Shown: positions 8,345-30,673 of the stretch, one piece after another
Layout of the letters: each line of letters opens with the position of its first letter
Numbering within the stretch: the stretch's first letter is position 1
From: Methanocaldococcus jannaschii DSM 2661
Lineage (GTDB): Archaea; AGJL01; Methanococci; Methanococcales; Methanocaldococcaceae
Assembly: GCF_000091665.1 (NCBI RefSeq)
Contig: NC_000909.1
Location: 593,581-625,580 of the forward strand
DNA: 32,000 bases
Direction of reading: 5' to 3'
Program-made: the position numbers and the translations under genes
The notes under the pieces: generated by a model
Databases searched by the model: none
Told to the model about the DNA's origin: nothing
The model's input: the letters and a program-made list of their open reading frames with translations, nothing else

Positions 8345-8378
8345 TATTTCACCAAAATAAGGAAAATATTACAGAAGA

Positions 8379-8445
8379 TTAACAGACCCTTGGTATTGGG
8401 TCTCCAATCGGCATATCGACAATTCTCCTACCAACAATATGTCTC
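8379..8445 (-). repeat. Displaced duplicate of the last 19 codons plus stop of hypE (non-translated copy)
   Basis: 8379-8438 aligns without gaps to 8501-8560 at 50/60 identity. It translates to the identical peptide IVGRRIVDMPIGDPIPRVC*. Homology seems to continue about 6 nt further (gtctc) across a 1-nt indel. Confidence 0.9.
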
Positions 8446-8500
8446 GCATGAAACTTTTAGAAAAGTTTCATCAAAACTTTTAAAAATTGCATTATGAATA
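8446..8500 (-). repeat. Family-A palindromic element (short version) between the two hypE 3' end copies
   Basis: Contains the hairpin atgaaactttt-ag-aaaagtttcat (8448-8471) and the conserved core gaaacttttag.aaaagtttcatcaaaac. The same core occurs at 23552-23580 and 25450-25478, and inverted at 25549-25577. Confidence 0.85.
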
Positions 8501-9508
8501 TTAACAAACTCTTGGTATCGGATCGCCAATAGGCATATCCACTATCCTTCTACCAACAATCGTCTCTATTATAACTCCCTTATGTTCTTTTGTAGCATAG
8601 CCAATGATTTCAGCATTCTTTCCTAATGGATGCTCCCTTAAAATCTCTAAGCATCTTTCAGCATCTTCCTTTTTAACTGCCATAACTACCTTTCCTTCAT
8701 TTGCTATAGTTAAAGGGTCTAAGCCAAGAATATCACAAATTGATTGAACTTCATCACTTATTGGGATTTTATCCTCAAATATAGTTATGCCAATATTACT
8801 CTTTTCAGCCATCTCATTTAACGCATCTGCCAAACCTCCTCTTGTAGGGTCTTTCATGGCATTTATTTGAATGCCCTCTTCTAAAACCCTCTCAATTAAT
8901 TTATTTATTGGAGCTACATCTGATTTTATGTTTGTTTCAAAATCAAATCCCTCCCTTGATAATAAAATAGCTAATCCATGCTCTCCTATATTTCCAGAAA
9001 CAATTATTGCATCTCCCTCTTGAACATTACAATCCCTTATTGCCTTTCCCCTATCAACAATCCCTATTCCAGCAGTTGAGATTATGATATCATCAACTCC
9101 ATCAGATACCTTTGTATCTCCTGTTATTATTGCTACTTCAGCCTCTTTAGAAGTTTCGTTTATTGATTTAACTATTTTCTCCAAATCTTCTAAGTTAAAA
9201 CCTTCTGGAATTATTAAAGATAGAGATAGAGCTAATGGCTTAGCTCCCATAACTGCTAAATCATTTACAGTTCCACTAACAGCCAATCTTCCAATATCTC
9301 CACCTGGGAAGAATATTGGTTTAACTGTGTGTCCATCAACAGTAAAAACAATCTCCTTATCACCTATTGGGATAGTTGCTGAATCATCCAAGCTTTCTAA
9401 GCCAATTCCTCCATTAACTGATGTTATCTCCAAATTTTTCAATATTACATCTTTTATAAGCTCCTGCATTACCTTTCCTCCAGCTCCATGCATTCGTGTG
9501 ATTTTCAT
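8501..9508 (-). CDS. hypE: [NiFe]-hydrogenase maturation protein HypE
   Basis: AIR-synthase-like/PurM fold sequence (HGAGGK.., GDTKV, DPTRGG) and the diagnostic C-terminal PRVC. Confidence 0.95.
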   Translation of the reverse strand: MKITRMHGAGGKVMQELIKDVILKNLEITSVNGGIGLESLDDSATIPIGDKEIVFTVDGHTVKPIFFPGGDIGRLAVSGTVNDLAVMGAKPLALSLSLIIPEGFNLEDLEKIVKSINETSKEAEVAIITGDTKVSDGVDDIIISTAGIGIVDRGKAIRDCNVQEGDAIIVSGNIGEHGLAILLSREGFDFETNIKSDVAPINKLIERVLEEGIQINAMKDPTRGGLADALNEMAEKSNIGITIFEDKIPISDEVQSICDILGLDPLTIANEGKVVMAVKKEDAERCLEILREHPLGKNAEIIGYATKEHKGVIIETIVGRRIVDMPIGDPIPRVC

Positions 9509-14402: not shown

Positions 14403-17309
14403 TTATCCTTTAATAACTCCTAATGGTCTCATTCTTGCTACTTTTAATGATATTCCAGCTTTATGACATGTATCTGCGACTAAATCAACACTCTTATATG
14501 CCTCTGGTGCTTCCTCTGCCATAACTGCCTTTGAATCACTCATGGCAACGATTCCCATCTCTGCCAATCTTCTTTGTATCTCTTTACCCTTCCACAACTT
14601 TAATGCCTTAGCCCTACTTAGCTTTCTACCGGCTCCATGTGCCGTTGAACCAAACGTCTCTTTCATAGCAATCTCTGTCCCTCTCATTAAGTAAGAGGCG
14701 GTTCCCATATCTCCAGGAATAATAACCGGCTGTCCAACACTCCAATATTCTTTTGGAATTGCCTCATGCTTTGGTGGGAATGCCCTTGTAGCTCCTTTTC
14801 TATGCACTATAACTTTTACCTTCCTTCCATCTATTATGTGTTCTTCTTTCTTAGCTATGTTGTGGGCTACATCATAGACAATATTCATCTCTAAATCCTC
14901 AGCATGTATTTTAAATACTTCTTCAAAGCTCTCTCTAACCCAGTGAGTAATCATCTGTCTATTTGCCCATGCATAGTTTGCTCCACAGCACATTGCTTTA
15001 AAGTAACTCTGCCCTTCTTCTGATTCAAATGGAGCACATGCCAACTGTCTATCTGGAAGTTTTATTCCATAGTTTTTGGCTGCTTTTTCCATAATTCTTA
15101 AATAATCAGTACAGATTTGATGCCCTAAACCTCTTGAACCGGTGTGCACTAAAACAACAACTTGATTTTCCTCTATTCCATATATTTCAGCAGCTTCCTC
15201 ATCAAATACCTTTTCAACATACTGCACTTCTAAGAAGTGGTTTCCACTTCCTAAACTTCCTAATTGAACTCTTCCTCTCTCTTTTGCTTTATCTGAGACA
15301 TAGGAAGCATCTGCATCTTTTAAACAGCCATGTTCTTCAATAAACTCTAAATCTTCCTTCCATCCATAACCCTCTTTAACAGCCCATCTAACTCCTTCCT
15401 CTAATACATCATCCATAACACTTTTGCTGAATTTTAAAATTCCCTTACTTCCCAAACCAGAAGGGACATTTTTGAATAAGGTTTTTATAAGCTCTTTTAT
15501 CTTTGATTGAACTTCTTCTTTTGTTAAATTTGTTCTTATAAGCCTAACTCCACAGTTATGGACAACTATGCTATTTGCTATGAAGTTGTGTTCTTTGCTT
15601 ACTATTCCAACATCATACAATTTTGAATCATAAGAAATTTCTTCAATCTCCTTTATCTTGTCTATTACAAATCCTCCAATAACCCCATATTTTTCAATAA
15701 ATTCCTCAAACTTTGGGAATTTTGTTGAAATTCTTACATCATCTTCATCCAAGTTTTCATATACTGCCCTCTCAATTAATCTTTTGCTTATAAACTCATT
15801 TCTAAATTCATCCATCTTTAACATTTCTGAGACTGTTACTCCTTTTTTATAAAGTTCTTTTGCTCTTTTAATACATTTTTTTCTAATTTCTTTTGCAATA
15901 TCCTTCCTTCTTAAGTATTCATAAGCCAACAATCCAATAACTTTTTTCTCCCCTGAATATTCATAGTTTATTCTTCCTAAGAAGTTCTTTATGCTCTCTT
16001 CCCCAACAATTGCCAGTCTGTATGAAACTCTACCATCTAAAGATTTTATCTCATAAATCATACTTTCAATGTCAAACTCAGCCAATAATAGCTTAATTTC
16101 ATTTAAAAACTCTAAGATATTTTCTTTTAGCTCTTCACTCTTTGACATCGTTAAGTTTATTGGTAATGGTGTGTAGTTTTTAAACACTGCCCTACTTCCA
16201 TCAGCTCCAAACAATCCAGCTAAGAAGTTTCTCTTTACCCATTTTGGAGCTTTCTTTATCCACTCTGGGATTTTGTATATCTGCTCTGTCTTTTTACCAA
16301 TTGGCATTCCCAATTTATGCATGAACAATGCAAATGCCTTTGAAGTTATTTTTATAGAGTTGTCTTCACACAAGCTTGTATATTCATCTCCGTAGGCATT
16401 TCTTATCTCAACTTCCCTCTTCCTTGAATATATTCTTGAAGCTTTTATTCCTAATTTCTCTAAATCTTCTCTAATTTTAATAAGCGTCTCTCTCTTTCCA
16501 TAAAATGCCACATACAACCTCTCTCTATCCCCATTCTCTTTAACTATACTTCCATCTCCAAATGCAAAACCTAACAATCTTGCAATAATACCAATATTTT
16601 TGTTGTCCATTCTAAGTGGTAATAACCCTCTATCTTTTAGATATTTGATAATCTGTTTATCATACTCTGCAAAATCATCCTCATCTAATATTATCTCATC
16701 AGACGGTTCTTCATATTCAACCCCTTCATAAGGATAAACTATTACATCATCCCCTTCTTTTAACATGCCCATTGGTACATAACCGTTTAATGTTAAAACT
16801 GGATGGTCTTTACTTCCCTCTAAAACTCTTCCAGATTCTGTTTTTATCCTTATTATCTTCTCATCTGCATATCTTTCAGAGACAAACAATATGTTTGAAC
16901 TCTTTTCTCCCTCCTCTGTATTATAAATCTTAATATGTAAATCCAATTTTTCTTTTAGTTTTTCCAATTTTATGTAATATCCATCATCCGTTAATATTTT
17001 TGAGTTTGATGTAAGGCAGTTGATATCAAAACCAACCCCTCCAGGGCTTATAACTCCTTCTCTTTGGTCAAAAGCCGCTACCCCGCCAATCGCGAACCCA
17101 TAACCGTAATGCACATCAGGCATAGCTATAGAATACTTATAAATCCCAGGCAAGCATGCAACGTTCGCTATTTGTTCTAAAACCTCTGGTTCTAACTCAT
17201 CTAATAGGATTTCGTTTAAGTAGATTCTTCCAGGAACTCTCATGCAATCTTTGTAATCCTTAGGTAATTCCCATACTACATCGGAGACCCTTTTTAATAC
17301 ATCTTTCAT
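14403..17309 (-). CDS. rtcB: RNA-splicing ligase RtcB, interrupted by an intein (968-aa precursor, about 480-aa mature)
   Basis: RtcB motifs lie on both sides of the insert ([17 protein letters not shown] | [26 protein letters not shown]). Removing residues 98-585 restores the conserved GFDINCGVR junction. Confidence 0.97.
15555..17018 (-). mobile_element. Intein with LAGLIDADG homing-endonuclease domain (488 aa) inside rtcB
   Basis: Starts at Cys98 (CLTSNSKIL) and ends VVHN, followed by the +1 Cys. Block B-like SKDHPV. Two LAGLIDADG motifs ([23 protein letters not shown]). Codon positions were checked against the DNA (tgc at 17018-17016, aac at 15557-15555, tgt at 15554-15552). Confidence 0.93.
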
Positions 17310-19325: not shown

Positions 19326-20087
19326 ATGATTATTGCTGTGAGTGGAAAAGGTGGAGTTGGAAAGACAGCATTTACAACATTATTAATTAAGGCATTATCT
19401 AAGAAAACAAACAGTATTTTGGTTGTTGATGCAGACCCAGACTCAAATCTACCAGAAACTTTGGGAGTTGAAGTAGAAAAAACTGTTGGAGATATTAGGG
19501 AAGAGCTAAAAAAGTTAGTTGAGAGGGATGAAATTCCAGCAGGAATGACGAAATTAGATTATTTAAGGAGTAAGATTTTTGAAATTTTGGTTGAGACAAA
19601 ATATTATGATTTATTGGTTATGGGAAGGCCTGAAGGTAGTGGATGTTACTGCAGTGTAAATAACTGGCTTAGGCAGATTATAGATAACTTAGCTAAGGAT
19701 TATGAGTTTGTTGTTATAGACACTGAGGCTGGCTTAGAGCATCTCAGCAGAAGAACAACCCAAAATGTTGATGTGATGATTGTTATAACTGATGCATCAA
19801 AGAGAGGTTTAGGGACTGCAAAGAGAATTAAAAAATTAGCTAATGAGTTGGAGGTTAAGTTTAAAGACATCTATGTTGTTGCAAATAAGGTTAAACCAGA
19901 GTATGAAGAGCTAATTGATAACTATGCAAAAGAGCTTGGTTTGAATTTAATTGGGAAGCTTCCTTATAATAAGGAAATAGCTGAGTATGATTTAAAAGGC
20001 ATTCCTTTATGGAATCTTCCAGAAAATAATGAAGTTTATAAAAAAGTTGAGGAAATTGCTGAGAAGATAATTAATAAAAAATTTTAA
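19326..20087 (+). CDS. CooC-type P-loop NTPase (nickel-insertion accessory protein family, MinD/ParA superfamily)
   Basis: Deviant Walker A GKGGVGKT, the CooC-type GSGCYC (CxC) metal motif, and Walker B VVIDTEAG. Confidence 0.8.
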   Translation: MIIAVSGKGGVGKTAFTTLLIKALSKKTNSILVVDADPDSNLPETLGVEVEKTVGDIREELKKLVERDEIPAGMTKLDYLRSKIFEILVETKYYDLLVMGRPEGSGCYCSVNNWLRQIIDNLAKDYEFVVIDTEAGLEHLSRRTTQNVDVMIVITDASKRGLGTAKRIKKLANELEVKFKDIYVVANKVKPEYEELIDNYAKELGLNLIGKLPYNKEIAEYDLKGIPLWNLPENNEVYKKVEEIAEKIINKKF

Positions 20088-21826
20088 GATATTAATTCCA
20101 ATATTTTCTCTAAGATTAATTTTTCTCTAAGCTCTATAAATCTATTAAAGTTCTCTTCAATTTCATCTTTTGATAATGAATCATCGGTATTTCTTAGAAT
20201 TTCAAACATTTCTTCATTTATAAAATGCCCTTTTAGAATTTCTTTAACTTTATTTACTGCTTCATCTTCGGATAATCCTTTATTTTTCTGAATTTCTATC
20301 ATTTCTTTGACATATTTGGATGGTGATTTTTTTGAGATTTTCTTATTGGTTTCATCAAGAATGGGTGTTTTATTTAAAACTGAATCTATATATTCATTGG
20401 ATATGCCTTTATTTCTTAAAAATCCTTTAGGAAATATATGATGGTCTTCAAGCTTATAGTAGGCAATATTATCAGGCTTATAGAAATCCATTGGTTTATT
20501 TTTAAATATCAAATTAAATACTCCCTTATATTTTGAACTTCCAGAACTTTTAACTTTCTTTAAACTGTATGCTCCATATTGTATTTCAATCTTTAAGTTT
20601 TCAACGACTTCTGGAATTTTGTTATTGTTCTCAATCCATTGTGAAACTTCTTTAAAATCTTTCATCATCTTGGATTCTGTAGAACCCGAGTATCTCTCAG
20701 AAAATACTGAACTCCAATACCATTTATTAACTTTGTCCATATCTGGAATATCATGTTTTAAAAAGAATGCCAACATCATCGTTATTGTTGGTGTATATGG
20801 ATTCCATTTTTTAATATCTGCAATTCCATATTCGCTAATATCAAAAATTCTTTGAAATACTTTATTTTCAGCAATATCTACAACTCTATTCCATGATTCA
20901 TCATTTAAAATGGAGTTATCAATTTTAATTAAATCTCTTGACTTGATGCTCATTCCTTTACTTAAAGCTAATGCCTGAATAAACATATAAGGCACTTTTG
21001 TATCCTCAACATCACCTGCAAAATTTTTAATGCGAATGTTATTTTCAAACGCTTCTGCCCACTTTTCCCTTAATTTTATAAATTTATAAAATCTTGCAAC
21101 CAATAAATCGTAAGGCGATAATTTTATACCAGTTTTGTTTATTCTTTCGAATAACACTACAACTTGTTCGGGTTTATCATTGTAAGATAATCCTAAAATT
21201 AGTGTAGGAACTTTATATTCCAATATGTTATGCATATAATTAAATACTTCTTCAGGAAAAATTTCACTAAAATGCTTATACCATATCTTATAAAATTTAT
21301 TTGAATTTGATAAAAATGTTAATGGGAAAAATCTTTTTTCTTTTAATTTTTCTATATCGAAAGAATTATCTTCATTTAATAAAGCTTTATATTGTCTACA
21401 ATCTTTAGACAGGCTAAAAACAGAATTATCAATATCATCTTCAACTAATTTGTTTAAATCTATAAAAAACGCATAAGGTTTTGTAGTATTTTTTAATGGA
21501 AAATTTGGGCTATATATTGCATAAAATAATGACGTTAGTCTTTGCTGACCATCAAGAACCAAAATTCTTGGTTTTCTTAATGTTATATTAGGATTTAATT
21601 CCTCTGCCCCCCTAATGTAGATTGTCCCAAATGGTGGATTTTCAGGATTTATTTCTTGGATTAAAAAAGTTCCTATAAACATATTTTCCAAAAGAGATTT
21701 AATTAGTTCTTCTATATCTTGTCTTGTCCAGACAAAATTTCTCTGAAAATCAGGGAGTGCTACTTCCCCTTCGTATGCTTTTTTTACTAAATCTAAAAGG
21801 TTCTTTGTATCATGACTCAACTCCAT
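20084..21826 (-). CDS. DUF262 (ParB-like NTPase/nuclease) plus DUF1524 (His-Me finger) fusion protein, GmrSD/BrxU-like putative type IV restriction enzyme
   Basis: N-terminal DFQRNFVW and DGQQRLTS motifs (DUF262). C-terminal LEDHHIFPK..N..N (DUF1524-type HNH-like). Its stop overlaps the convergent cooC-like stop by 4 nt. Confidence 0.75.
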   Translation of the reverse strand: MELSHDTKNLLDLVKKAYEGEVALPDFQRNFVWTRQDIEELIKSLLENMFIGTFLIQEINPENPPFGTIYIRGAEELNPNITLRKPRILVLDGQQRLTSLFYAIYSPNFPLKNTTKPYAFFIDLNKLVEDDIDNSVFSLSKDCRQYKALLNEDNSFDIEKLKEKRFFPLTFLSNSNKFYKIWYKHFSEIFPEEVFNYMHNILEYKVPTLILGLSYNDKPEQVVVLFERINKTGIKLSPYDLLVARFYKFIKLREKWAEAFENNIRIKNFAGDVEDTKVPYMFIQALALSKGMSIKSRDLIKIDNSILNDESWNRVVDIAENKVFQRIFDISEYGIADIKKWNPYTPTITMMLAFFLKHDIPDMDKVNKWYWSSVFSERYSGSTESKMMKDFKEVSQWIENNNKIPEVVENLKIEIQYGAYSLKKVKSSGSSKYKGVFNLIFKNKPMDFYKPDNIAYYKLEDHHIFPKGFLRNKGISNEYIDSVLNKTPILDETNKKISKKSPSKYVKEMIEIQKNKGLSEDEAVNKVKEILKGHFINEEMFEILRNTDDSLSKDEIEENFNRFIELREKLILEKILELIS

Positions 21827-22930: not shown

Positions 22931-23042
22931 TATAGTTTCTTGCAAAACATTTTAGAATAAATAATACATTTATGAACACCTTCCAAAAGGAAGGTGTTCA
23001 AACCTTCCTTACGAACTTCAGTAACTTTTGCAAGAAACTATA
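22931..23042. repeat. Family-B palindromic element (MITE-like): perfect 17-bp terminal inverted repeats plus a central GC-rich hairpin
   Basis: TIRs are tatagtttcttgcaaaa (22931-22947) and ttttgcaagaaactata (23026-23042). Central 12-bp stem tgaacaccttcc-aaaa-ggaaggtgttca (22973-23000). A second copy lies at 26378-26484. Confidence 0.85.
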
Positions 23043-23085: not shown

Positions 23086-23118
23086 TAAATGTTTCTAAAA
23101 TTTCAAAGATGTGAAAAA

Positions 23119-23532
23119 ATGAATGTTAAGATAATAGTTGAGTTTATAAAAAAGTTCGCAGAAGAAAATAACTGTAAAAAAATAGCTGAGATTGGAATTG
23201 GATTTAAATTTGATGTTGCAAGAGAATTAAGTAAATATTTCGATTTGATAGCCATAGATATTAATGAAAAAGCTATTGAAAAAGCTAAATTGTTGGGATT
23301 AAATGCTTATAAAGATGATTTATTTAATCCAAATATAAGTTTATATAAAAATATTGATTTAATATATTCCATAAGACCTCCAAGAGATTTACAGCCGTAT
23401 ATTTTAGATTTATCAAAAAAAGTTAATGCAAATTTAATTATAAGACCTCTTTTGAATGAGATGCCAATAAAAGAGCTAAAACTAAAAAACTACAAAGGAG
23501 AAGTGTTTTATATAAAAGAAAAACAAATTTAA
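23119..23532 (+). CDS. UPF0146-family protein (methyltransferase-like Rossmann fold)
   Basis: IAEIGIGFKFDVA..IAIDIN..IYSIRPP resembles the conserved archaeal UPF0146 family. I prefer the start at 23119 (MNVKII) over 23089. Confidence 0.6.
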   Translation: MNVKIIVEFIKKFAEENNCKKIAEIGIGFKFDVARELSKYFDLIAIDINEKAIEKAKLLGLNAYKDDLFNPNISLYKNIDLIYSIRPPRDLQPYILDLSKKVNANLIIRPLLNEMPIKELKLKNYKGEVFYIKEKQI

Positions 23533-23551
23533 GCTTTTAATTTCTTCCTTC
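23529..23551 (-). repeat. Displaced duplicate of the last 6 codons plus stop of rpl39e
   Basis: ttaagcttttaatttcttccttc versus 23627-23649 ttaagccttcaatttcttccttc (21/23 identical). Both encode RKKLKA*. Both mismatches are at wobble positions. Confidence 0.8.
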
Positions 23552-23626
23552 GAAACTTTTAGTAAAAGTTTCATCAAAACTCGTCCATTAAGTTAGGGCT
23601 TTCAGCCCTAATTAATGTCCATTCAC
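23552..23626 (-). repeat. Family-A modular hairpin element (two modules) between the rpl39e 3' end copies
   Basis: Module 1 is gaaacttttagtaaaagtttcatcaaaac (23552-23580). Module 2 is the bulged hairpin ccattaagttagggct-ttc-agccctaattaatg. Module 2 recurs inverted at 29669-29706. Confidence 0.85.
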
Positions 23627-23785
23627 TTAAGCCTTCAATTTCTTCCTTCTCCAGTATCTCATTTTTGGGTGGAATCTAACTCTCCCTCTTGTTTTAACAA
23701 TGACAAACAATGGAACTCTTCTATTCTGCTTTAATGCTTTAGCCAATCTTACCTTCTTTCCTAATGGCTTGTTGCTTCCCATCAT
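23627..23785 (-). CDS. rpl39e: 50S ribosomal protein L39e (52 aa; absent from the ORF track because it is under 60 aa)
   Basis: My reverse-complement translation gives [58 protein letters not shown] Shine-Dalgarno site immediately upstream. The sequence is characteristic of L39e. Confidence 0.9.
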
Positions 23786-23790
23786 CTCAC

Positions 23791-24393
23791 CTAAATCTCC
23801 TTTTTTAATCCAACAACCCTTGTTTGTTTATGTTCAGGGAAATATTTCTCTGGACTTTCTCCTCTCTCCTTCAATATATGTCTAATCTCTGCCTCGTAGT
23901 CAGAGCTCAACTTAGTTCCACTTTTTATCTCTTCTAATATAAAAAATTCACTTGCTAAATGCCTCAAAGTTTTATAACCAAAACCCATTAATGGGGTTAT
24001 ATATTGGATATTTTTCCTCATCTCTAAGCTCTGAATCTCTGAATAGCTAAGCTTTGGGACTCTATCATCTCTTCTTGTCCCATCCGCTAAAATGCTATAT
24101 TCATCAGCCAAAATTTCTAAGACAGTTTTATGAACATATTGTATTGCAGGGCCAGGATATTTATGTTCAATAATCATATCAGCAGCTTTTTCAACAATTT
24201 TTCTATCGAGAGTTATAACTTTATGCTTAAATCCTAAAATTTTAGCAGTTTCTTCAGCTAATTTATAAGAGGGAATAACACCAAAATTTATAGTTATTAG
24301 ATGAGGATTGTAACCAAGTTTTTTTAATATCACTGCAGAGAGGGAGCTATCTTTCCCTCCACTAAAGAGAACATGAACATCCATAAGTTTCAC
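23791..24393 (-). CDS. PP-loop (adenine-nucleotide alpha-hydrolase superfamily) ATPase
   Basis: N-terminal SGGKDSS PP-loop. Its start overlaps the upstream stop (ATGA). It is embedded in a ribosomal-protein cluster. Confidence 0.65.
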
Positions 24394-25177: not shown

Positions 25178-25425
25178 TTTTGCACCTCTCTTAATTATTT
25201 TTTAATTAATTTATTTTGATTTTCTTTCTAATCTATTTATTTTGTGTTTAAGATTATGAGTTTTTGTAGCATAAAATCTATTTAAGGATATGTAGTTTAA
25301 ACCAATAAAACAAGCTTAGTATTAATTTGATTAGGTTATATTTATATCTTATTATTATCGATAGATACATCTTTAGGTTTAAAATTTAACTCTATAAAAA
25401 AGAGAAGAGAGTTAAATATAAAAAA

Positions 25426-25449
25426 TGGAGCCGGGGGTGAAATTTAAAC
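25426..25449 (-). repeat. Displaced duplicate of the 3' 24 nt of tRNA-Cys (CCA, discriminator, acceptor 3' strand, part of the T arm)
   Basis: tggagccgggggtgaaatttaaac versus 25580-25603 tggagccgggggtgggatttgaac (21/24 identical; the three differences are G-to-A in the displaced copy). Confidence 0.85.
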
Positions 25450-25579
25450 GAAACTTTTAGTAAAAGTTTCATCAAAACGGATGCATTGCTTCCTAACGGA
25501 AGCAATGCCTCTTAATTTACACCTCCGAGCGTAAGCGAGGAGGTGTCAGATTTTGATGAAACTTTCTTAAAGTTTCAAA
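25450..25579 (-). repeat. Family-A element, full-length 130-nt version: two hairpin-forming terminal inverted repeats flanking two GC-rich hairpins
   Basis: Left TIR gaaacttttagtaaaagtttcatcaaaac (25450-25478). Right TIR gattttgatgaaactttcttaaagtttc (25549-25576/7). Internal hairpins are gcattgcttcc-taac-ggaagcaatgc and acacctcc-(12 nt)-ggaggtgt. Confidence 0.9.
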
Positions 25580-25654
25580 TGGAGCCGGGGGTGGGATTTG
25601 AACCCACGTAAGGCGGATCTGCAGTCCGCTGCCTAGCCCCTAGACTACCCCGGC
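25580..25654 (-). tRNA. tRNA-Cys (anticodon GCA), CCA encoded
   Basis: Manual cloverleaf: acceptor GCCGGGG/CCCCGGC, D stem GTCT/AGGC, anticodon stem GCGGA/TCCGC with loop CTGCAGA, variable loop CTTAC, T stem GTGGG/CCCAC with loop TTCAAAT, discriminator U73 (a tRNA-Cys identity element). 75 nt. Confidence 0.93.
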
Positions 25655-25717: not shown

Positions 25718-26335
25718 TTAACTTTTATAGTATTTGCTCCACAATATTCTTAAACATTCAATAACCATCCTTTTAGCAATCTCATCTAATGTATATGGTG
25801 TTATTGGCTCAAAATCTCTGATAAATTTCTCAGTTCCTACAACTATATGCCCCTCTTCATCTAAATTTAAAAATTTGGCTGGGCCTTTTGCATATTTGGC
25901 ATCACAAACCTTTATTTTTTCTTCTATACCAAATACCCCATTAGTTCCTATTGTTTTAATTCCTCTCTCTTTACAGTAGTTTATGATTGCCTTTGTTGTT
26001 GGGATTGTATCTCCACCAGCTATACATATCACTGCTACATCTCCCTTAATTAAATGAAGATTATCTTTAGTTATATTTTCTCTAAATGCCTCAACTCTAT
26101 TTCCAAAAAATCTCTTTATAAAATCTACTTTGTATTCCCCAACCTTTCCCCCTAATCTTCTATGGACAATATCATTTTCTTCTATTTTGGCATTATCAAA
26201 AACATAAACTTTTTCTACCCCACCTCTATGAACTTCTAATAAATCAAAAGCTACTCTAACACCCAATCTTCCGCATCCAATTATTGAAACTTCTCCTTTT
26301 GGCTTTAATTTTCTCTCCATCTCTTCAACGTTCAT
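25718..26335 (-). CDS. Rossmann-fold protein, ThiF/MoeB (E1-like) family-like
   Basis: VSIIGCGRLGVRVAFDL..VYVFDNAKIEENDIVHRRL resembles the E1-like GxGxxG / DxDxVExSNLxR pattern. I moved the start to 26335 (MNVEEMERK) because the track's first 36 codons lie inside the family-B repeat. Confidence 0.4.
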   Translation of the reverse strand: MNVEEMERKLKPKGEVSIIGCGRLGVRVAFDLLEVHRGGVEKVYVFDNAKIEENDIVHRRLGGKVGEYKVDFIKRFFGNRVEAFRENITKDNLHLIKGDVAVICIAGGDTIPTTKAIINYCKERGIKTIGTNGVFGIEEKIKVCDAKYAKGPAKFLNLDEEGHIVVGTEKFIRDFEPITPYTLDEIAKRMVIECLRILWSKYYKS

Positions 26336-26377
26336 AAATATCCCATCCAAACAGAACTTTTTTAGTAAGAAAGTATA

Positions 26378-26484
26378 ATAGTTTTTTGCAAAGTTATTAA
26401 AATTTATTAAGGAACATTGAACGCCTTCAAAGAAGGCGTTCATTATTATGCTTTACTAATATAAGACATTTTGCAAAAAACTAT
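26378..26484. repeat. Family-B palindromic element, second copy
   Basis: Perfect 15-bp TIRs atagttttttgcaaa (26378-26392) and tttgcaaaaaactat (26470-26484). Central hairpin tgaacgccttc-aaa-gaaggcgttca (26418-26442). Confidence 0.85.
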
Positions 26485-28965: not shown

Positions 28966-29658
28966 ATGGAAGACATTAAAATCAAAGAGATTTTTGAAAA
29001 CATCTATGAAGTTGATTTAGGAGATGGCTTAAAAAGAATAGCAACAAAATCTATTGTTAAGGGAAAAAAAGTATATGATGAAAAAATAATAAAAATTGGA
29101 GATGAAGAGTATAGAATTTGGAATCCAAATAAAAGTAAGTTGGCAGCTGCAATAATTAAAGGTTTAAAGGTTATGCCAATAAAAAGAGATTCAAAAATCT
29201 TATACTTAGGAGCTTCAGCTGGAACTACACCATCTCACGTTGCAGATATTGCTGATAAAGGCATTGTATATGCCATAGAGTATGCACCAAGGATTATGAG
29301 AGAGCTTTTAGATGCATGTGCTGAGAGGGAAAACATAATCCCAATTTTAGGAGATGCAAATAAACCTCAAGAATATGCAAATATTGTTGAAAAGGTAGAT
29401 GTTATCTATGAGGATGTTGCTCAGCCAAATCAAGCGGAGATTTTAATTAAAAATGCTAAGTGGTTTTTAAAGAAAGGCGGTTATGGAATGATAGCAATAA
29501 AGGCAAGGAGTATAGATGTTACAAAAGACCCAAAAGAGATTTTTAAAGAACAAAAAGAAATTTTAGAGGCAGGAGGTTTTAAAATAGTTGATGAGGTAGA
29601 TATTGAGCCGTTTGAAAAAGACCACGTCATGTTTGTAGGTATTTGGGAGGGAAAATAA
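28966..29658 (+). CDS. flpA: Fibrillarin-like rRNA/tRNA 2'-O-methyltransferase
   Basis: YRIWNPNKSKLAAAI, ILYLGASAGTTPSHVADI, VYAIEYAP, DVAQPNQAEI and IAIKARSIDVT are canonical fibrillarin. GGTGA Shine-Dalgarno site upstream. Confidence 0.97.
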   Translation: MEDIKIKEIFENIYEVDLGDGLKRIATKSIVKGKKVYDEKIIKIGDEEYRIWNPNKSKLAAAIIKGLKVMPIKRDSKILYLGASAGTTPSHVADIADKGIVYAIEYAPRIMRELLDACAERENIIPILGDANKPQEYANIVEKVDVIYEDVAQPNQAEILIKNAKWFLKKGGYGMIAIKARSIDVTKDPKEIFKEQKEILEAGGFKIVDEVDIEPFEKDHVMFVGIWEGK

Positions 29659-29742
29659 CATAAAATTGGACATTAATTGGGGCTAAAAGCCCCAACTTAA
29701 TGGACGGGAGGTATCCCAATAGGAGGTCTCCTCCTATGGTTG
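29659..29742 (+). repeat. Modular hairpin element between the two fibrillarin 3' end copies
   Basis: Hairpin 1 is cattaattggggct-aaa-agccccaacttaatg (the same module as at 23584-23620, inverted). Hairpin 2 is ataggagg-tct-cctcctat. Confidence 0.8.
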
Positions 29743-29786
29743 GAGAAAGACCACATATTATGTTTGTTGGAGTTTGGGAAGGATAA
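29743..29786 (+). repeat. Displaced, partly decayed duplicate of the last ~14 codons plus stop of fibrillarin
   Basis: gagaaagaccacatattatgtttgttggagtttgggaaggataa versus 29614-29658 gaaaaagaccacgtcatgtttgtaggtatttgggagggaaaataa. The terminal part reads MFVGVWEG* versus MFVGIWEGK*. There is a 2-nt insertion and a 3-nt deletion. Confidence 0.8.
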
Positions 29787-30542: not shown

Positions 30543-30574
30543 GATGAAAATAGATTAGATATACAAAAACTTCG

Positions 30575-30673
30575 TTTCCATCCTCCAAGAGGTCTGATTT
30601 TAATCTCGGAGACATATTCGACCTATGGAGAGCAGACACTAACTTTCCATCCTCCAAGAGGTCTGATTTTAAT
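30575..30673 (-). CRISPR. Mini CRISPR array: two identical 30-nt repeats and one 39-nt spacer
   Basis: Repeats at 30575-30604 and 30644-30673. Their reverse complement is attaaaatcagacctcttggaggatggaaa, which resembles the Methanocaldococcus ATTAAAATCAGACC....GGAATGGAAA repeat type. Spacer 30605-30643 is ctcggagacatattcgacctatggagagcagacactaac. Orientation is inferred from the ATGGAAA(G/C) 3' handle. Confidence 0.85.

Follow-up and report, generated by a model that had tools for sequence, protein, structure and literature searches.

Why does rpl39e, the gene for ribosomal protein L39e (eL39), carry its last codons twice? The gene lies in a 32,000-nt stretch of Methanocaldococcus jannaschii DSM 2661 (NCBI RefSeq assembly GCF_000091665.1, contig NC_000909.1, positions 593,581 to 625,580 of the forward strand), which was analysed as a whole and is called the window below. 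An earlier reading of the letters alone, referred to here as the original prediction, placed a 75-nt element immediately after the rpl39e stop codon and, beyond it, a 23-nt copy of the end of the gene. The sequence does read in this way (Table 1), and the two copies are, as had been claimed, identical at 21 of 23 positions and both encode RKKLKA*. In what follows we ask how the second end came about, and argue that it was probably produced by the insertion of a small palindromic element, comparable to MITEs (miniature transposable elements with inverted repeats), with an exceptionally long duplication of its target that regenerated the terminus of the gene.

Empty and occupied rpl39e sites among relatives

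Orthologous rpl39e loci were taken from genomes, metagenomes and contigs that could be reached via the neighbouring genes. The element is missing from 11 of them: L004, L006 (sp. 16A), L007 (sp. 28A), L008, L009, L010, L011 (M. indicus), L018, L021, L022 and L023. In each of these empty loci a single gene end stands directly against the convergent UPF0146 gene with no spacer in between, as in L006, which reads ...AAATTGAAAGCTTAATTAAATCTCTTTTATATAAAACAC. The proximal copy of M. jannaschii, which is the end in use, is identical to the single gene end of L004, L018 and L023. Four lineages were found to be occupied (M. jannaschii, L017, L016 and, as L013, M. fervens). They have an identical right junction, ...AAAAGTTTC followed by G(A/G)AGGAAGAAATT, and in each the end of UPF0146 comes after the distal copy.

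These comparisons settle the relationship between the two copies. Because the UPF0146 end follows the distal copy, just as it follows the single end in the empty loci, the distal copy is the ancestral terminus. The original prediction had taken the compact setting of this copy to be ancestral, and the arrangement in the 11 empty loci bears this out; the overlap it described is also present, the UPF0146 open reading frame (ORF) ending at 23532 and its stop sharing 2 nt with the stop of the distal copy, so that the 3′ end of UPF0146 adjoins the ancestral L39e end. Since the relatives are empty and have one gene end, the 23-nt repeat is half of a duplication within a 98-nt insertion and not conserved intergenic sequence. 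Judged by this alignment of loci, the 98 nt that follow rpl39e are an insertion polymorphism with a 23-nt duplication.

The alternative that the repeat is a chance match, or else a conserved intergenic or regulatory motif, has the shortness of the repeat in its favour and nothing besides. Direct repeats matching at 21 or more of 23 positions with a spacing of 40-250 nt occur at four places in the window (rpl39e, the tRNA-Cys element described below, a Lys-rich low-complexity run and a pair of repeats of the clustered regularly interspaced short palindromic repeat (CRISPR) type), and 20 Markov shuffles produced none as good. The alternative is already refuted by the empty relatives, where the sequence occurs just once and no spacer is present, and the pattern is also present at four other genes. 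We attach practically no probability to it.

A further argument of the original prediction, that both mismatches between the copies (TTG/TTA and AAG/AAA) are synonymous, is correct as a fact but carries little weight as evidence. The probability of such an outcome is about 0.03 when all substitutions are considered and about 0.15 when only transitions are, and the two sites are synonymous polymorphisms already standing among the empty-site strains. Folding of the 141-nt region around the element gave -33.1 kcal/mol (z = -3.9 versus shuffles). Rfam covariance models run on 23480-23680 returned no family match, the top score being 23.6 bits against a gathering score of 70.

In one lineage the event can be seen to be recent. 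In L017 the copies are identical at 23 of 23 positions, and over 767 nt of flanking genes this locus differs by 0.4% from the empty L018; the event that separates them, whether a gain or a precise loss, was therefore recent. On a tree of the flanking genes the occupied loci are scattered, and the few differences between L017 and L018 are concentrated at and just downstream of the insertion, which together suggest that the occupied allele is also passing between strains by homologous recombination. About 1.2 kb upstream of the L39e stop, with no element nearby, 19 substitutions separate L017 from L018 in a stretch of 90 nt; elsewhere they are ~99.8% identical. This is a recombination patch, short and highly diverged, and shows that patches of this kind are common in the population.

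The insertion likely alters transcription at the locus, as the overlapping convergent stops are now separated. The T-rich complement of the relic is predicted to be, in all likelihood, the first sequence now reached by transcription of UPF0146, and the two hairpins likely fall within the 3′ untranslated region of the L39e transcript, ahead of a T-tract (ATTTGTTTTTCTTTT).

The same arrangement at other gene termini

The original prediction spoke of the same architecture elsewhere, and within the window it is indeed seen at hypE, tRNA-Cys and fibrillarin (Table 1). The hypE copies are 71-72 nt long, ~83% identical, and both encode IVGRRIVDMPIGDPIPRVC*. This site is empty in all six related genomes compared: FS406-22, M. 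fervens, sp. 16A, M. lauensis and two metagenome-assembled genomes (MAGs). In the MAG JAADDS, from a more distant lineage (L038 11009-11190), an unrelated composite of hairpin modules follows a single hypE end with no duplication; it includes a unit resembling hairpin B (described below) and a unit resembling those of the DUF354 site (also below), and the downstream gene is a different one.

At tRNA-Cys the duplication covers 27 nt, made up of the last 24 nt of the tRNA and TTT. The copies are identical at 24 positions, and each of the three mismatches is a C-to-T change that lies in the non-functional copy, which fits a decaying relic; relatives have a single tRNA end. The fibrillarin duplication is 44-45 nt long and flanks an element composed of hairpin A and another hairpin. 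In sp. 16A the fibrillarin site is empty and hisB comes directly after the gene.

An additional 13.5 kb of M. jannaschii sequence beyond the window added one case, at the 5′ end of a DUF354 gene. Here 37 nt comprising the ribosome-binding site, a TTG start and eight codons are duplicated (36/37 identical) around an insert of ~155 nt that consists of tandem GC-rich hairpin units, and an ORF beginning in the first copy crosses the element and stops just before the second. As this case concerns a 5′ end, the duplication is general to these insertions and not peculiar to 3′ ends. Over the five M. jannaschii cases the duplications measure 23, 27, 37, 44-45 and 71-72 nt, and the corresponding sequence is single-copy in the empty-site genomes, where such genomes were available. 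When ~250 kb of related sequence was scanned for duplicated gene ends, nothing besides hypE came up, a weak negative in that short ORFs and gapped copies are missed by such a scan; the comparison suggests that M. jannaschii has far more of these elements than its relatives do.

An integrative element of the integrase type was considered as the source of the arrangement and rejected, as the elements are 50-160 nt long, contain no family-matching ORF, and sit at five unrelated targets including a 5′ end.

Table 1. Coordinates of the duplicated termini, their elements and neighbouring features (window positions unless stated otherwise).
Feature	Position	Strand	Sequence or remarks
rpl39e, proximal copy of 23 nt (end in use, ..RKKLKA*)	23627..23649	minus	GAAGGAAGAAATTGAAGGCTTAA
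rpl39e, distal copy of 23 nt (relic of ancestral terminus)	23529..23551	minus	GAAGGAAGAAATTAAAAGCTTAA
75-nt palindromic insert	23552..23626	no strand	hairpin A, linker, hairpin B; missing from 11 related loci
Hairpin A	23586..23617	no strand	CATTAATTAGGGC/TGAAA/GCCCTAACTTAATG; 13-bp stem with one bulge
Hairpin B	23552-23572	no strand	GAAACTTTT/ACT/AAAAGTTTC; perfect 9-10-bp stem
Hairpin B + ATCAAAA, 28 nt	23552..23579	plus-strand reading	GAAACTTTTAGTAAAAGTTTCATCAAAA; exact right terminus, adjoining distal copy
hypE	8374..8566	minus	in-use copy 8496-8566; 50-nt element with hairpin B 8446-8495; relic 8374-8445
tRNA-Cys	25423..25603	minus	in-use copy 25577-25603; 127-nt element 25450-25576; relic 25423-25449
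Fibrillarin	29614..29786	plus	in-use copy 29614-29658 (..DHVMFVGIWEGK); 84-nt element 29659-29742; relic 29743-29786 (..HIMFVGVWEG)
DUF354, 5′ end	L042 17595-17823		~2.3 kb left of window; first (proximal) copy relic, second (distal) copy functional
Two classical MITEs, one family	22933-23040; 26379-26483		TA duplication; 15-nt inverted repeats TAGTTT(C/T)TTGCAAAA; central hairpin TGAAC(A/G)CCTTC..
rpl39e (eL39) coding sequence including stop	23627..23785	minus	ORF list, Pfam, PDB, synteny; 52 codons from first ATG
Convergent UPF0146 gene	23089..23532	plus	Pfam PF03686 E=7e-55; gene calls

Modules and ends of the elements

The elements at these sites share parts. Hairpin A is found at L39e and at fibrillarin (29670-29701). 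Between these copies an A:T pair of the stem is replaced by G:C, a compensatory change that speaks for maintenance of the hairpin. Hairpin B is found at L39e, at hypE and twice at tRNA-Cys, where hairpin B plus ATCAAAA makes up terminal inverted repeats of ~28 nt; the 28-mer at L39e is the same sequence as these repeats. A pair of inverted repeats is present at tRNA-Cys, only the right one at L39e, and none at hypE or fibrillarin. At the L39e locus, the copies of M. fervens and L016 retain a remnant of a left hairpin B (..AAAGTTTCATCAA..), and they also hold further nested hairpins, even a TA-type MITE. On the simplest reading, the members of the family are non-autonomous, end on either side in hairpin B + ATCAAAA in inverted orientation, and have variable hairpins inside. 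The "two-module" hairpin element of the original prediction stands as regards hairpins A and B; the M. jannaschii copy at L39e is, however, probably a truncated derivative that has lost its left end, the fuller form having hairpin-B inverted repeats.

Searches for the modules in relatives found only the orthologous L39e copies and one composite in FS406-22. The latter (L012 18895-19001) comprises four modules, ends in ..AAAAGTTTC and was inserted within the final codons of a Methyltransf_30 gene. The C-terminus of the encoded protein was thereby replaced, ..KDANIFIL* becoming ..SNMGDKIFIEMSKF*, and there is no clean duplication; M. jannaschii (window ~2303-2330) and sp. 16A are empty here.

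The shape of the composites raises the possibility that no transposase was involved. In replication template switching of the fork stalling and template switching or microhomology-mediated break-induced replication (FoSTeS/MMBIR) type, a stalled nascent strand would copy hairpin modules located elsewhere and re-anneal upstream of the point it had left, giving a templated insertion with a duplication of arbitrary length. This would accommodate the spread of duplication lengths from 23 to 72 nt, the imprecise left boundaries of the elements, and the mosaic, modular construction of the composites, which take forms such as A+B, B′-X-Y-B, A+C and tandem C units, with modules nested in modules. Against it, the right terminus ...AAAAGTTTC is exact at L39e, at tRNA-Cys and in the FS406-22 insertion, the 28-nt terminal inverted repeats at tRNA-Cys point to recognition of ends, and the junctions that were inspected had no consistent microhomology. 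We regard template switching as a distinctly improbable origin.

The modules were also sought outside the genus. blastn of the L39e and tRNA-Cys elements against 72,556 plasmids gave no match, and neither did hairpin A in IMG/VR. A 25-nt hairpin B motif with its TTTTGATG flank occurs in seven unrelated, AT-rich IMG/VR viral contigs (L024-L030), where it lies just after genes; one of these contigs is giant-virus-like, one is a tailed phage, and one has three tandem copies. A viral origin was nonetheless rejected, as the contigs are mutually unrelated and the matches were taken as uninformative, perhaps convergent AT-rich stem-loops.

A model for insertion at gene termini

We count the insertion, its duplication, the ancestral status of the distal copy, the recurrence of the arrangement and the right terminus as established. 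To explain them, we lean with moderate confidence towards insertion of MITE-like palindromic elements with long target duplications that regenerate gene termini. At rpl39e, a small, non-coding, hairpin-rich element would have gone in among the final codons, doubling 23 bp of target with the stop included. The upstream copy keeps rpl39e complete, and the downstream copy is the displaced original end, still lying against UPF0146. Such a product would be expected if the target strands were opened tens of bp apart and the gaps filled in, presumably by an enzyme that acts in trans and recognises the ends of the element. With ~90% of the genome coding, most insertions would destroy a gene; the copies that persist would be the ones that lie no more than a few dozen bases from where a gene ends or starts (3′ or 5′ terminus), so that the cut end is rebuilt by the duplication, and selection would then lie behind the association with gene ends. 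Survival only near termini would explain why a gene end is found at all four copies in the window and at all five in M. jannaschii. Afterwards the relic would decay, the ends of the element would be trimmed, further hairpin units would nest inside it, and the occupied allele could be lost or passed among strains by ordinary homologous recombination.

Several observations weigh against this account. The duplications vary from 23 to 72 bp within one apparent family; DDE transposases normally use a fixed stagger, and a variable length is atypical. The L39e, hypE and fibrillarin copies are without a left inverted repeat, and their status as elements comes from shared modules and empty sites. No transposase or autonomous partner with matching ends was found, although a genome-wide search was not made; IS1595- and IS240-type transposase genes are present in related loci, without these element ends. 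The sample is small, consisting of five M. jannaschii cases and three related occupied loci. Finally, the in-use copies of hypE and fibrillarin are more diverged than the relics, though solely through synonymous or conservative changes, the opposite of what duplication followed by decay predicts, whereas tRNA-Cys has the predicted pattern, with its changes on the relic.

It is also conceivable, if improbable, that the elements have a way of moving that is new for prokaryotic MITEs, involving either an enzyme with a stagger of 20-70 bp or, more radically, a mini-element that carries a gene end and uses a recoded host terminus as a homing arm. Were the gene-end-carrying form true, hypE and fibrillarin would now be using ends of foreign DNA brought by the element, with their native ends surviving as the downstream relics. 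Under either form, the elements could settle harmlessly at the termini of essential genes, among them those of a ribosomal protein, fibrillarin, a single-copy tRNA and a hydrogenase maturation factor.

Divergence of the in-use copies

The asymmetry between in-use copies and relics was examined at the two genes that display it. At hypE, all 10 differences between the copies within 19 codons are synonymous. Polarisation with FS406-22 assigns six changes to the in-use copy and one to the relic, with three left ambiguous. The in-use copy differs at 8-10 of 60 nt from every sampled lineage; from FS406-22, the relic differs at 5 of 60 and the rest of the gene at 4.1 per 60 nt, so that the end in use has about twice the divergence of the remaining gene. 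The gene's last 70 nt contain 5 of its 12 M. jannaschii-specific substitutions. At fibrillarin, the C-terminus in close relatives reads ...DHIMFVGIW[K/R/E]G in a protein of 229 amino acids. The in-use end in M. jannaschii is ...DHVMFVGIWEGK (..HVMFVGIWEGK), giving 230 amino acids, and the relic reads ...HIMFVGVWEG*. The in-use copy thus has an I-to-V change and an additional Lys codon that set it apart from every close relative; the HIM..G* form survives in the relic.

Homology-guided integration ("Campbell-type", or att-like), conceived after phage 21 and e14 at icd and after integrative elements with a tRNA 3′ end, would make sense of these patterns. In such a scheme the hairpin element carries the gene end of an earlier host and recombines with the resident end, leaving one foreign and one native copy on its flanks. 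An in-use hypE copy that is anomalously diverged yet purely synonymous, next to a relic that looks native, is what would be expected, as is a fibrillarin gene whose in-use HVM...GK is unlike all close relatives and whose relic is the ancestral HIM...G*. Two features of the L39e locus point the same way. The distal copy in M. fervens and L016 (GGAGGAAGAAA..) matches the distal copies of M. jannaschii and L017 and not their own ends (AGAAGAAGCAAG / AGAAGAAAGAAA), and the position of most L017/L018 differences, at and downstream of the insertion, fits arrival on a recombination tract.

Homology-guided integration cannot, however, make the first copy at a locus, for which an insertion that generates a duplication is still required, and the presence of one module family beside five unrelated targets argues against a site-specific recombinase. 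At hypE, a search for the donor lineage ended without a candidate, as in none of the six relatives does the native end equal the in-use copy of M. jannaschii. A distant donor is excluded because the encoded peptide is specific to the M. jannaschii clade. A large recombination tract was likewise rejected as the cause of the asymmetry, the divergence from FS406-22 being uniform at 5-10% on both sides of the insertion. The patch of 19 substitutions in L017/L018 arose without an element, and the hypE patch may be the same kind of event. On balance we think homology-guided integration unlikely.

Insertion with a long target duplication remains the reading we favour, with an anomaly that may stem from import with the element, from an unrelated short recombination patch, or from accelerated synonymous change. 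Should a synonymous-only excess in in-use copies prove general, it would suggest that gene ends are imported or recoded in association with the elements.

rpl39e, its neighbours and other features of the window

The original prediction identified the gene at the centre of this arrangement as a 52-amino-acid L39e gene and proposed a profile search of its peptide. The peptide encoded by the coding sequence in Table 1 matches Pfam PF00832 (Ribosomal_L39) over profile positions 1-42 of 42 with E=3.9e-19 and 68.5 bits, above the curated cutoff of 21.6. Among PDB chains, 51 distinct eL39 sequences match it, the best being 4v4n_Af (residues 1-50 on 1-50, E=3.9e-19); the eL39 chains that were matched end to end have 51 residues and come from archaeal and eukaryotic ribosome structures. 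The order S19e, dsDNA-binding protein, DUF7411, L39e and convergent UPF0146 is conserved in more than 15 loci, each with an intact ORF of 51 amino acids. The identity of the gene is thus confirmed, whereas its length is not: translation probably begins at the second ATG (position 23782), for a product of 51 amino acids (23627-23782), because relatives show a single ATG after a GGTGA ribosome-binding site and gene callers give 51. The annotated start of UPF0146 probably also lies later than 23089, giving 137 amino acids. No Pfam match was obtained for the ORFs 23700-23885 (plus), 23482-23577 (minus) and 23615-23734 (plus), the first of which the original prediction had called spurious. In itself, rpl39e is an ordinary gene and already known.

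The two classical MITEs in the window are both missing from relatives and, with their TA duplication, contrast with the elements that make long duplications. The one at 26379-26483 supplies an ATG that spuriously extends the ORF 25718-26443 by ~36 codons; the real start is MNVEEMERK.

A mini-CRISPR array at 30574-30673 has two repeats (Rfam CRISPR-DR39) and one spacer, and is contained in ~700 nt, between hisB and the next gene, that are missing from sp. 16A. As a neighbour of the hairpin elements it raised the question of Cas1 or CRISPR involvement, for which nothing was found in favour. RtcB (14403-17309) contains an intein with a LAGLIDADG domain (968 amino acids), as it does in FS406-22 (969); the protein is intein-free, with 480 amino acids, in M. 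fervens and sp. 16A, and has 1923 amino acids with two intein insertions in M. lauensis. At 20084-21826 lies a gene for a 580-amino-acid protein with a GmrSD_N domain that is missing at the syntenic position in sp. 16A and several MAGs. The region appears to be a strain-variable island, and the gene is possibly a defence gene.

Implications of the insertion mode

What makes these elements of interest is their mode of insertion, that of a MITE-like palindromic family with exceptionally long and variable duplications that regenerate gene termini; there is a minority chance that they are instead mini-elements carrying gene ends, or that a new integration enzyme is at work. To our knowledge, long variable duplications have been reported for only two insertion sequences, with the mechanism unexplained. 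Non-autonomous elements whose target duplications are variable and ten-fold longer than usual would provide a compact case that can be checked, and the existence of empty and occupied alleles in near-identical strains makes the system tractable.

The rpl39e arrangement also suggests a way for selfish DNA to survive where a genome leaves it hardly any non-coding space, as the duplication would rebuild the terminus that was cut. At the same time the insertion parts abutting convergent genes and adds hairpins to 3′ untranslated regions. For annotation, the elements would account for stray pseudo-termini and for spurious ORFs and ORF extensions in Methanocaldococcus.

Comparison with known systems

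Short, non-coding palindromic repeats named MJRE1-3 were reportedly described in M. jannaschii by Suyama, Lathe and Bork (FEBS Lett, 2005; cited in PMC2229807 and PMC2996958), and are said to be mostly extragenic, with some located in coding regions without destroying them. The description is not known to include long target duplications that regenerate gene termini. Judged by organism and general character, the hairpin elements are very probably MJRE members.

Classical MITEs (Correia, RUP, ERIC-like elements and the SM elements of Sulfolobus) resemble the present elements in being small, non-coding, hairpin-forming and multicopy, polymorphic for presence and absence, and target-duplicating. 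The clean empty sites at L39e, hypE, fibrillarin and tRNA-Cys, together with the flanking target duplications, are what one expects of a MITE. The duplications of classical MITEs are, however, short and fixed, at 2-10 bp, whereas those described here are variable and span 23-72 bp. Enterobacterial repetitive extragenic palindromes and bacterial interspersed mosaic elements (REP/BIME) likewise form modular palindromic mosaics between genes, often convergent ones; unlike the present elements they have no target duplications, and they are mobilised by RAYT (IS200/IS605-like) enzymes, which make none.

Phage 21 and e14 carry a substitute 3′ end of the E. coli gene icd, and integrative elements whose integrases target tRNA genes carry a tRNA 3′ end. 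The outcome is similar, with a repeat of a gene's 3′ end flanking the insert, a gene that remains functional, and copies that differ mainly at synonymous sites. Such elements are, however, kilobases long, encode an integrase and have one target each, as opposed to 50-160 nt and many targets including a 5′ end.

Casposons and CRISPR spacer integration offer a precedent for a staggered attack that duplicates a sizeable segment (15 bp in the former, a whole repeat in the latter). The casposon of A. boonei makes a fixed 15-bp duplication at a target that overlaps the 3′ end of a tRNA gene (PMC5137440), and this choice of target resembles that seen here. It is nevertheless the enzyme that sets one length of duplication, casposons are large elements with genes for Cas1 and PolB, and nothing ties the hairpin modules to Cas1.

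IS1634-family elements are 1.5-2 kb long and autonomous, with a DDE transposase, most members make repeats of 5-6 bp, and no such transposase or ends were identified here. IS1634 and IS1549 are nonetheless the nearest precedent: they belong to a diverse family that is common in Euryarchaeota and generate direct repeats of 8-514 bp for which there is "no mechanistic model" (PMC2266710), and these repeats are long and variable, as are the 23-72 nt duplications at the gene termini of M. jannaschii.

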